A DNA stretch of 64,000 bases from the NCBI GenBank assembly GCA_965649765.1, contig OZ287748.1:92752001-92816000 (forward strand). Direction: 5' to 3'. The notes below the pieces were generated by a model that saw only the letters and a program-made list of their open reading frames with translations, was not told the origin of the DNA and ran no database searches. This document shows, one piece after another, positions 1,980 through 8,053 of the stretch. Made by a program: the position numbers and the translations under genes. Position 1 is the stretch's first letter. The number at the start of each line of letters is the position of its first letter. Source of the DNA: Bispira polyomma (taxonomy: Eukaryota).

Positions 1980-2154
1980 GACCTTTCGTACAAAGACAAG
2001 CATTGGCACGAGAAGTGTTTCAAATGTTGTGACTGCCAGAACTCCCTAGTCGACCAACCCTTCGCCTCAAAGAACGAGAAACTCTACTGTGCCGATTGCC
2101 ATGACAACAACTTTGCAGCCAAATGTGACGGATGTGGGAATATATTTAGGGCAG
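1980..2154 (+). CDS. FHL2: FHL2/Limpet-like LIM protein, internal coding exon (5' exons lie upstream of the window)
   Basis: tttctag|GAC...GCAG|gtgagt; translates DLSYKDKHWHEKCFKCCDCQNSLVDQPFASKNEKLYCADCHDNNFAAKCDGCGNIFRA, a LIM zinc-finger pattern resembling FHL2. Confidence 0.92.
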
Positions 2155-3089: not shown

Positions 3090-3259
3090 GTATGAAGAAG
3101 TACGAGTACCGTGGCAAGCAGTGGCATGAGAACTGTTTCTGCTGCAAGGTGTGCCAGCAGCCCATCTGTACCAAGAGTTTCATCCCTCGTGAGCAGGAGG
3201 TCGTCTGTGTGCCCTGCTATGAGGAGAACTTTGCCCAGAGGTGTATGAAGTGTAACGGG
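3090..3259 (+). CDS. FHL2: FHL2-like LIM protein, internal coding exon
   Basis: ttcag|GT ATG AAG...AAC GGG|gtgagt; GMKKYEYRGKQWHENCFCCKVCQQPICTKSFIPREQEVVCVPCYEENFAQRCMKCNG; phase matches the previous exon. Confidence 0.93.
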
Positions 3260-3894
3260 GTGAGTAGGGACACAACTCGGGCACCATAATATTTTTTAAA
3301 AATCGGTCCTGCTATCTCATTGTGTATGCCTACACATACAATTGTAGCCATTCGGATACCGAAGTAGGTTGAATGTGGCATTTGAAATCATTAGAGGTGC
3401 ATGAAGTGTAATGGGGTGAGATGGCACACAACTCGGGCCATAGTAATTATCAAAGATCTGATATTTTTACTTGTAATATTTAAGGCTGCAAGCGAGCCAG
3501 AAAATGGGCCCCGGTTACTCGCTAAGTGAGACTCGATTTGGTACCGAGTACGCGCTAAATTTATTTTAACCCAAACCAAAACGAGGCTGTTTTTATTTAC
3601 TTCCTGCCAACTGTAAAAAATATAGATGTAAATACTAAAGAAAGGGGTGGTTGATGTCTAATTATATATAATTTTATGTACGGTTCAATGTGTGCCAGAA
3701 GTTAACTTAGCGAGTAATCGGCTTCTCGTTTCTGACCCAGGCCACAAGTCGAACCGCTTTGTCGGGATTTAACCGACTACTCGTTTTGCCCTTAGTAAGA
3801 TTCTCAAAATTGGTCCTATTGTGTCATTATGTATGCCAACACATACTATTGTAGCCGTTCAGATACCTCGGTGGTTAAATGTAGCATTTGAAAT
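3237..3894. repeat. 156-bp tandem duplication of exon 3' end + donor + intron start; second copy split by an insertion
   Basis: 3237-3390 matches 3393-3442 joined to 3806-3894. Confidence 0.75.
3481..3794. mobile_element. MITE-like insertion (possibly PIF/Harbinger type)
   Basis: ends TAAGGCTGCAAGCGAG / CTCGTTTTGCCCTTA; inverted pair CCGGTTACTCGCTAAGT (3511) / ACTTAGCGAGTAATCGG (3705); interrupts the 156-bp duplicate. Confidence 0.6.
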
Positions 3895-3963
3895 AATTGC
3901 ATTTGGTCAAAAATTATGTCATCTGAACTACATTGTATCTCCTTTTACCTGATTTTGCTCCTA

Positions 3964-4061
3964 GCTGGGATCAAAACCTAGCTCCTCTGCATTCTTAGCC
4001 AGTATGTGAACCCAATAGATGAGTATCTCAGACTGGGATTGAACCTAGGTCGTCTGCATTT
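3964..4061 (-). mobile_element. two short tRNA-derived SINE-like fragments
   Basis: minus strand reads ATGCAGACGACCTAGGTTCAATCCCAG, with a second degenerate copy (T-arm/B-box-like). Confidence 0.4.
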
Positions 4062-4074
4062 CTACGCGGTACCT

Positions 4075-4437
4075 CTTGGCACCATGACTGTTTATTGATG
4101 ACTGTGTCATATCTTATCTACAGGTGATTAACAAGGGAGGTATAACCTACAAAGGCACCACTTGGCACCATGACTGTTTATTGATGCCCATGTTATGTCT
4201 TATCTCCAGGTGATTAACAAGGGAGGTATCACCTACAAGGGCACCCCTTGGCACCATGACTGTTTATTGATGACTATGTTATGTCTTATCTCCAGGTGAT
4301 TAACAAGGGAGGTATCACCTACAAGGGCACCCCTTGGCACCATGACTGTTTATTGATGACTATGTTATGTCTTATCTCCAGGTGATTAACAAGGGAGGTA
4401 TCACCTACAAGGGCACCCCTTGGCACCGTGACTGTTT
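4075..4437 (+). repeat. 86-bp tandem repeat x ~4 made of the intron 3' end and the first ~55 nt of the exon
   Basis: CAG|GTGATTAACAAGGGAGG with exon-like starts at 4124, 4210, 4296 and 4382. Confidence 0.95.
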
Positions 4438-4568
4438 CACCTGTAACCACTGTCAGAAGATCCTAGCTGGAGAGAAGTTCACTTCCCGTGAAGACCAGCC
4501 CTACTGTGCCGACTGCTTTGGAGAGCTGTTTGCTAAGAAGTGCATCAAGTGTATCAAACCCATCACAG
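4382..4568 (+). CDS. FHL2: FHL2-like LIM protein, internal coding exon
   Basis: ctccag|GTG ATT...ACA G|gtaggt; VINKGGITYKGTPWHRDCFTCNHCQKILAGEKFTSREDQPYCADCFGELFAKKCIKCIKPIT. Confidence 0.92.
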
Positions 4569-6064
4569 GTAGGTCAGAGAATGGGTGACGTATTAGTAGT
4601 ATAAGGGACGATGTACCCAGTTGCTAAGAAATACCAGTCACAATTTGTATGAAAACCAAAGCAAGCCTAGCGATTGAGGGTCTCAAAAACGCAATTGAAT
4701 TCAATATTGTTTAATGAATTTGTTTAGCCTCTCACCAATGTTGATTTGATTCCTATTTATTCCTCCATGTGGGAAAATTTGTGAGGTACATTGTGATATG
4801 ACTTTAGATGTTGAAAGCTAAAACCCAAGTAAATCTAAATTCATATATTTTACATTATTTCTTCCAAAGATTTAGTAATAGTCAGCCACCGTTGCTAAAG
4901 CAGTTGTTGGTCCCTACTAAATGTATGATGAGAGTTGCTTAGTACCTTATGGTTACTGAAGCAGCATCAATTTTTGCATCACCCTATCATAACTGTTACT
5001 GTGAATGACGAATATGAGTCTTTGAAAATCATAGTAAAAAATCCTTATAAAGTCAGTATACCTACCCATGTTCACAACATTTTTTTCAGCCTATCAAATT
5101 GATTGAGACAAAAACTTCAAAAGAAGCATTTTTGTGTATACCAACTCAGGACTATAACAAGAATTTGTTCATACAATGATGGTACTTGAAATGTCAAATG
5201 AAAATTTGCACTGTTAAATAATAACATTACACAAATTTGCACAATGAAAATATCATTTTTTGGGAAAGTGGTACTACAGGTATACACACGTATTCTGATG
5301 TAATAGTTTTGCTCTCTTTCTCCAACCTGTTTGGAGAGCTACATTGGGTAAATAGAAGGTAAAAAGAAGAGATATTTTGGGCACAAAAGAATAGGGAAAA
5401 CATAAATGTGGGAGAGTTACAAATTAAAATATGAGTTCATAAAATTGATTAAAAAAAACCCCCAGATAATAGAATTTCGCACAAGTGTATGTTTCCATGT
5501 CCGTGACTTGCCGGGAGACATGATATGCCAAATATAGTAATGTATTCTTCTGAAGGCTATCACTTGCTTATTTTTTGTCAGATTTTTAAAATTCTTTCAC
5601 AATTTTAATCTTGACAATTAAGACAAACAAATTGATACTGAGCTTTTAAATATTAAAGCAAAGTGTGTGTGTTTTTGTGTGCTTGTGGATCAGGCAAAAT
5701 TCGCTCCCAAGATCAAATTTGTTAACGTAAACCGCAACTACTCGCCGATTACATGAAAATACTTGCTCTGTCAGAAAGGGACCTTAACAGTCATCAAGTA
5801 TGGCAAAGTTTCTACAGGACTTGCCTGTATTTAATGATATTCCGGTTCTCCAAAAATCACAAAAAAGTACCTCAAGGGCACTAAGTCTCATACTCAAACA
5901 TAACCTCTTATGAGACCATACAGTAAACAAAGGTTGAAATACAATTGGCATTAATTTAAAGTTTAAATTGTACAAGGCAGTGTGATCCATTATTAGCCTG
6001 ACTACCACACAGGAAGTGACCATATGTTAATGTTGTAAACATGAACTTATCTCTTCTGTTCCAG

Positions 6065-6213
6065 GTCTGGGTGGCACTAAGTTTATCTCTTTTGAGGAGA
6101 AGCACTGGCACAGCGACTGCTTCAACTGCTACAAGTGCAACACCTCCCTGGTAGGGCGTGGTTTCCTCACCGATGAGGACAGCATCCTCTGCCCTGAATG
6201 TGGCAGGGCGTAA
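6065..6213 (+). CDS. FHL2: FHL2-like LIM protein, terminal coding exon
   Basis: ttccag|GT CTG GGT...GCG TAA; GLGGTKFISFEEKHWHSDCFNCYKCNTSLVGRGFLTDEDSILCPECGRA*, typical FHL C-terminus. Confidence 0.93.
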
Positions 6214-7884: not shown

Positions 7885-8053
7885 GTGCAATATCTAAATG
7901 GTTACAGCTAGTGAAGCAATATCTAAATGGTTACAGGTAGTGACGCAATATAACTGGTTACAGTTAGTGATGCAATATAACTGGTTACAGTTAGTGACGT
8001 AATATAACTGGTTACAGCTTGTGACTCAATATAACTGTTTACAGTTTGTGACG
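7885..8053. repeat. 27-30-bp minisatellite (GTGACGCAATATAACTGGTTACAGTTA)n, ~6 copies
   Basis: visible tandem periodicity. Confidence 0.85.

Follow-up and report, generated by a model that had tools for sequence, protein, structure and literature searches.

Duplicated splice sites in other systems

The repeats most like the one described here are the mirage minisatellites of amphioxus. These have been reported in the globin genes BflGb6 and BflGb9 and in Adh3, troponin C and PGBD5, and RT-PCR was reported to give normal splicing although many of the repeats keep their AG or GT (PMC3087553, PMC3902484). For Adh and troponin C, PMC3902484 gives the same account as PMC3087553. In humans, the CBS insertion c.844_845ins68 is described as a duplicated intron/exon junction with two close acceptors, of which the distal one is strongly favoured and yields normal mRNA; there is one extra copy of 68 bp, linked to c.833C (PMC2630376). 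At the present locus, by comparison, there are three extra copies of 86 bp. Work by Romano et al. in 2002 reportedly found that c.833C influences acceptor choice in CBS.

The 37-bp VNTR in IVS7 of human F7 also has its end unit across a splice site, and its identical pseudo-sites are described as functional yet silent, the exon-proximal site being the one that wins (PMC1557585). That repeat is on the donor side and was explained by 5'-to-3' scanning (PMC1557585); its counterparts here are the donor decoy at 3416 and the 34 duplicated donors reported below, not the acceptor array.

Two further processes involve the sequence AG/GT, in which the slash marks the splice junction. At recursive-splicing ratchet points, as at the present array, AG/GT could act as an acceptor and then as a donor (PMC8797253, PMC7355637). 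In intron gain by AGGT duplication (the Rogers model; ATP2A1), a GT...AG segment could be removed without a change in the protein, a feature also shared with the array; there the AGGT is inside coding sequence and the new intron splits an exon, whereas here it belongs to an existing acceptor (PMC3265369).

The anatomy of the array described here, in Bispira polyomma, agrees with the printed description of the amphioxus mirages (PMC3087553, PMC3902484). It differs in that the host is a non-chordate invertebrate and that splicing is predicted from sequence alone.

The host gene and its intron

The window analysed is a stretch of 64,000 nucleotides, and coordinates refer to it unless a contig is named. 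All four exons of the host gene inside the window matched Pfam LIM, and two further exons are located upstream of it. Relatives of the 187-nt exon were named Limpet, FHL2 or prickle-like (93 hits), the named hits coming from a mollusc and insects. The host is taken to be a Limpet/FHL-type PET-LIM gene, an assignment that rests on the tandem LIM domains, as the PET-coding exons were not located. The features of the gene are as follows.

1980..2154, + strand: LIM exon of the host gene (Pfam LIM)
3090..3259, + strand: upstream LIM exon (Pfam LIM), with donor GGG/GTGAGT at 3260
3260..4381, + strand: host intron, 1122 nt, position kept in genomic orthologs
3393..3458, + strand: older duplicate of the host intron's donor and the adjoining exon end, with decoy GGG/GTGAGA at 3416, 156 nt downstream, 7.6 bits
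3480..3792, unstranded: high-copy dispersed repeat inserted in the host intron, summed contig depth to about 10,000 versus 16 in run X1
4382..4568, + strand: LIM-domain exon, 187 nt, phase-0 start (Val-Ile), followed by the strong donor CAG/GTAGGT at 4569
6065..6213, + strand: last coding exon (LIM), with stop

The first-pass annotation had given the donor as 3259. The junction is the same one, 3259 being the last base of the exon and the intron beginning at 3260. At 1122 nt, the intron is close to the sample median of 1043 nt. The duplication at 3393-3458 continues at approximately 3801-3898, beyond the high-copy insertion.

Related loci were fetched (77), and 64 full-length matches were examined. 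Among these 64 loci, genomic orthologs have the intron at the same place, mostly with CAG/GT. The closer orthologs read CAG/GTGATC, GTGATT or GTTATC at a single-copy acceptor, and no upstream copy of the acceptor was found in any genomic ortholog tested among the 64 loci, which are distant relatives. GTGATY is thus the Val-Ile codon pair behind a phase-0 intron in single-copy orthologs, and the donor-like hexamer is older than the array.

A second acceptor mirage was found in the same gene, at an upstream LIM exon (L006:2158) that starts with AC, not GT. It has at least 11 upstream copies of the acceptor spanning approximately 1.4 kb, 9 of them with the AG intact. In this region (L006:700-2157, upstream of the window), units of 44-56 bp copy TTTCAG/ACCTGC and are broken by an unrelated insertion. 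Many of these units have an internal CAG/GTATAG or CAG/GTACAG 18 nt into the exon copy.

Other repeats were seen in the window. Minisatellites with units of 13, 28 and 27 bp are located at 545-713, 1104-1387 and 7895-8053, in an intron and downstream of the stop codon. Two similar AT-rich elements, at 1476-1646 and 2197-2369 in successive introns, start with CAGTCAAACCCCTTTAAGTAGAA or a close variant and probably represent a small family of transposons. Downstream of the gene, some 50 kb of sequence (approximately 13500-64000) is occupied by a large tandem array whose step is approximately 1150 bp, with an internal 159-bp subrepeat.

Anatomy of the acceptor array

An 86-bp tandem array of 4.3 copies with 95% matches was detected by TRF at 4071-4437. 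Its unit consists of the last 30 nt of the intron and the first 56 nt of the exon, which confirms the initial reading of an intron end and exon start copied in 86-bp steps. In the genome search (1.04 Gb, 75 contigs) the array matched once. Its parts are as follows.

4071..4437, + strand: 86-bp minisatellite ('mirage'), defined by TRF and register alignment, with copy number from the depth of DNA runs
4071..4093, + strand: remnant of a truncated fifth unit, exon-derived, 23 nt, in register with exon nt 34-56
4094..4123, + strand: decoy acceptor 1 (its use would start the exon at 4124), 7.3 bits, ending in TACAG and the most divergent of the copies
4180..4209, + strand: decoy acceptor 2 (4210), 9.1 bits, with variants 4187 and 4189 apparently missing in sample S2
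4266..4295, + strand: decoy acceptor 3 (4296), 8.8 bits, with no difference from the authentic acceptor in the 106 nt before it and the 46 nt after it
4352..4381, + strand: authentic acceptor (exon start 4382), sole frame yielding the conserved LIM exon, 8.8 bits
4027..4064, unstranded: short piece of a dispersed repeat, directly next to the array on its 5' side

The dispersed repeat beside the array was considered as a seed of the duplication by homology and was rejected; its two other copies cease to match at approximately 4064, before the exon-like remnant.

AG/GTGATTAAC is present at 4124, 4210, 4296 and 4382, so the four acceptors called on first inspection are all there. They are near-identical as described, apart from acceptor 1, which reads TCTTATCTACAG and not ...CCAG. 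Relative to the unit at 4243, unit 1 has 7 differences, unit 2 has 3 and unit 4 has none. Within each unit there are a pyrimidine tract, a CAG and, near -26, a TTGAT resembling a branch site. The AG is kept in 3/3 decoys, which are intact and score on a par with real acceptors (7.3, 9.1 and 8.8 bits, the true site having 8.8). The matrix behind these scores is crude, its training set of 136 acceptors and 145 donors having itself been predicted.

The first-pass annotation was also correct that only the last acceptor, 4382, continues into the full LIM exon (4382-4568) and that a premature stop follows each of the others. Reading on from an upstream acceptor gives VINKGGITYKGT(T/P)WHHDCLLM(P/T)MLCLISR, a read-through of 29 residues, and then TGA at 4211, 4297 or 4383, which is 355, 269 or 183 nt before the next junction. 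The repeat is thus arranged head to tail across an intron-exon boundary and its terminal unit alone enters the true exon, as in the mirage description. The array is a young mirage minisatellite and is probably polymorphic.

Copy number and alleles

Three sequencing runs of one study cover the region, none of them recorded as RNA; since their contigs cover the intron, the runs behave as DNA. X1 and X2 are from one sample, possibly the source of the assembly, and X3 is from a second sample (S2). Over 4403-4707 none of the three runs had any depth, possibly through a filter, and this part was left out of the depth comparison.

In X1 and X2, one contig spans 3707-4219 with no differences. The bin depths were 39.6, 56.2 and 13.0 in X1, versus 40.8, 59.0 and 13.5 expected for the assembled copy number, and 45.9, 65.7 and 15.3 in X2, versus 47.5, 68.6 and 15.7. 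In the collapsed part, the depth agrees with the three and two word copies of the assembly; one unit more or one unit fewer would not fit.

These data bear on whether the extra copies arose by an error of assembly. In favour of such an error, units 3 and 4 are identical and none of the listed contigs spans the array from end to end. Against it, the differences private to copy 1 (7) and copy 2 (3) are read in one unbroken contig, the word depth in X1 and X2 agrees with the number of copies assembled, and a collapsed multi-copy unit is seen in the second sample too. Such an error is extremely improbable, and the array is not an assembly artefact.

In X3, the match of the contig ends at 4186, leaving 4 letters unmatched, and the collapsed contig has a length of 95 letters. 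To judge from the contigs, not from reads, this pattern appears as expected if the variants at 4187 and 4189 are absent. Depths of 253 and 202, versus 60-105 in the single-copy flanks, allow 3-5 copies as compared with the 3 assembled. From these contigs, the second sample appears to carry a different allele.

Exon boundaries elsewhere in the genome

Duplicated boundaries were surveyed in approximately 1.2 Mb around myosin, kinase and SLC6 genes, with boundaries predicted from homology and simple site scores. A copy was counted when the 30 nt around a boundary were matched within 1.5 kb on the intron side. For myosin and kinase genes, 153 candidates gave 142 acceptors and 145 donors after score floors and region-end exclusions; for SLC6 genes, 257 candidates gave 193 acceptors and 216 donors, and 4 decoy-like candidates were excluded. 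Array members mis-called as exons (3 + 1) were removed from the counts. Among consecutive SLC6 exon pairs, 89/104 gave an open frame with the predicted boundaries.

The Pkinase search gave mostly single-exon matches, and only 11 regions around partial matches entered the survey. Many intronless kinase ORFs of approximately 411-418 aa with near-equal scores were observed over many contigs (e.g. L013-L033), and these are possibly carried by a mobile element. Three myosin loci (C11:4.17-4.19 Mb, C8:1.22-1.24 Mb and C13:27.29-27.31 Mb) have near-identical scores and spans, and their presence on different contigs suggests a recently copied gene; one of the three entered the survey.

Boundary-spanning copies were found at 46/335 acceptors (myosin/kinase 17/142, SLC6 29/193) and at 34/361 donors (myosin/kinase 29/145, SLC6 5/216). 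The acceptor cases were spread over 14/30 and 18/40 regions, and control probes from other exons found a match in 2/675 trials. Donor copies thus differ by family, whereas acceptors are duplicated at similar rates (12% and 15%). Base composition gave no account of the donor difference between myosin/kinase and SLC6 genes, and base composition at exon ends did not separate duplicated from unduplicated sites. The duplications take the exon edge only, with a median of 27.5 nt, or 18% of the exon, and a maximum of 92 nt.

With a symmetric threshold, 42/323 acceptors were in the end unit of a repeat, versus 114/4638 deep-intron points (about 2.5%). This enrichment of array edges at acceptors, approximately 6-fold (OR 5.9, the points not being independent), indicates that something beyond random placement is at work. 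A true exon frozen by selection may explain part of the acceptor excess. The SLC6 donors, at background level (1.9%), suggest that a frozen exon is not the whole cause. Taken alone, a real bias of duplications towards splice sites is a tentative proposal, rather less probable than its absence, and a mutational bias that places array edges on splice sites is itself unexplained.

Decoy AGs had not been purged, being intact in 194/209 acceptor copies of the genome sample. Its conservation in the decoys was not significant (mismatch 0.043 versus 0.071 at codon positions 1+2, p=0.13, 40/46 cases), and likewise not significant when the comparison was made among copies only. Relative to intronic positions the decoy AG looked strongly conserved (0.041 versus 0.173), but this was discounted as artefactual, the true site itself being frozen. 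For decoy donors, the GT mismatch was 0.035 versus 0.067 at codon positions 1+2 (p=0.006 uncorrected, 28/34 cases), a conservation that is unexplained by pure neutrality.

These results also bear on poison splicing. The decoys might be regulated acceptors that tune the dosage of Limpet through nonsense-mediated decay (NMD), with copy number as a dial, and a use as NMD poison acceptors had been suggested at first. All three stops precede the next junction by more than 50 nt (183-355 nt), the decoys keep their signals and the S2 allele appears to differ, all of which would suit such a role. On the other hand, the array, with 95-100% identity, is young, genomic orthologs lack it at the corresponding acceptor, the same architecture occurs at 46/335 unrelated acceptors, and the copies show no significant AG conservation. 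A regulatory dial is accordingly a remote prospect, and the explanation of tolerance by poison splicing is not upheld.

No genome-wide frequency of mirages was found in print in a limited search of the open-access literature. The frequency given here covers hundreds of exons (12-15% of acceptors), and no such published count was found in that search.

The GT at the start of each unit

Each unit was said at first to begin with GTGATT, a 5/6 match to GTGAGT. The match holds, but the mismatch is at +5, which is strongly weighted in the genome's donors. The description of the upstream copies as donor-like stands: unspliced CAG/GTGATT scores 9.4 bits (58th percentile), the highest among the duplicated acceptors that start with GT (next 9.3). 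The rebuilt donor GGG/GTGATT scores 5.6 bits, the 8th percentile of 216 predicted donors by the crude matrix, as compared with 9.7 bits for the true donor and 10.7 bits for the downstream donor.

If AG/GT made decoys tolerable, duplicated acceptors should start with GT. A GT start was found at 18/46 duplicated versus 75/289 unduplicated acceptors (Mantel-Haenszel OR 1.76, p=0.14); the odds ratio was above 1 in both gene sets, in what is a small test. The 28/46 duplicated acceptors with other starts include arrays of 27, 17, 13 and 12 copies starting with TA, CT, GA and GC. Of the features of ratchet points, AG/GT and an upstream pyrimidine tract were found at the array; a strong rebuilt 5' site, a long intron and conservation across species were not. 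The present locus differs from ratchet points in its short intron, its weak rebuilt donor, a GT that belongs to a Val codon and extra sites that are not conserved (PMC8797253, PMC7355637). Recursive splicing, which had been offered as the reason that the decoys are tolerated, is unnecessary to explain this: the rebuilt donor is weak and 28/46 duplicated acceptors have no GT.

The same sequences permit a different route to a normal mRNA, in which the 86-nt units are cut out as mini-introns from a CAG/GT donor or are re-spliced stepwise from 3259. At 9.4 bits for CAG/GTGATTA, excision of a unit is conceivable, each unit having the branch-like TTGAT, pyrimidine tract and CAG of an intron. Introns of 58 and 84 nt exist among 180 predicted SLC6 introns, and a duplicated segment containing AGGT is reported to be spliced out in cells (Hellsten et al., PMC3265369). 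Against excision, the rebuilt donor is weak, most duplicated acceptors in the genome are without GT and only 2/180 predicted introns are under 100 nt; in human cells, the EJC (exon junction complex) has been described as suppressing 5' sites at exon starts (PMC7355637). Stepwise re-splicing faces the difficulty that the same rebuilt site also forms at the true acceptor and that the exon would be skipped if it were used there, and recursive splicing is described for long introns and as rare in mouse brain (PMC8797253), whereas the intron here is 1.1 kb. Removal by either route is unlikely, although these routes, and the decoys as poison acceptors, may see some low-level use. The same low standing is given to the broader proposal that each 86-nt unit is excised as a GT-AG mini-intron between exons of zero length and that the array is one case of a genome-wide, preferential copying of exon edges (approximately 6-fold, about 1/7 of acceptors); the excision at the RNA level is the less certain part of it.

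Intron birth by duplication, also suggested initially, fails on other grounds. Removal of a unit leaves an exon of zero length, and the duplicated AG/GT is an old acceptor at an intron position common to the orthologs, which leaves the set of intron positions as it was.

Predicted choice of the exon-proximal acceptor

The three upstream acceptors are probably silent decoys under exon definition, with 3259 predicted to be joined directly to 4382. A local duplication across the acceptor would have been expanded by unequal exchange or slippage. The spliceosome would pair the strong 4569 donor, across the exon, with whichever acceptor is closest to it. From 4382 this would give the normal 187-nt exon with all exonic sequence, and from the decoys exons of 273, 359 and 445 nt. 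Exons of at least 273 nt made up 1.6% of 193 sampled SLC6 exons; this rarity, together with copying limited to the exon edge, favours choice of the exon-proximal acceptor. In globin constructs with duplicated 3' sites, Reed and Maniatis reportedly found in 1986 that the outer site was used when the inner one had a short piece of exon.

NMD clears transcripts with premature stops. Rare use of a decoy would lead to such a stop and the product would be cleared, and the array may persist as nearly neutral and not for any job. The splicing outcome at 4382 is borrowed from other species and is to be read as an analogy.

Acceptors 4296 and 4382 share 152 nt without a single difference, a longer perfect match than in any of the 46 surveyed cases (next 98 nt). 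Discrimination between them must therefore come from further away, and it may leak.

Significance

The array is a known kind of repeat, a mirage, common in this genome, and as a single locus it is ordinary. Local sequence cannot distinguish 4296 from 4382 over their 152 nt, which makes the pair a clean natural test, and exon definition could be set against scanning or re-splicing in an invertebrate. The genome-wide copying of exon edges, if true, would provide sequence from which recursive sites and new introns could form. To go by the survey, such copies are present at 12-15% of acceptors and, varying with the gene family, at 2-20% of donors. If these rates hold genome-wide, the genome would contain thousands of natural decoy arrays in which splice-site choice could be measured.
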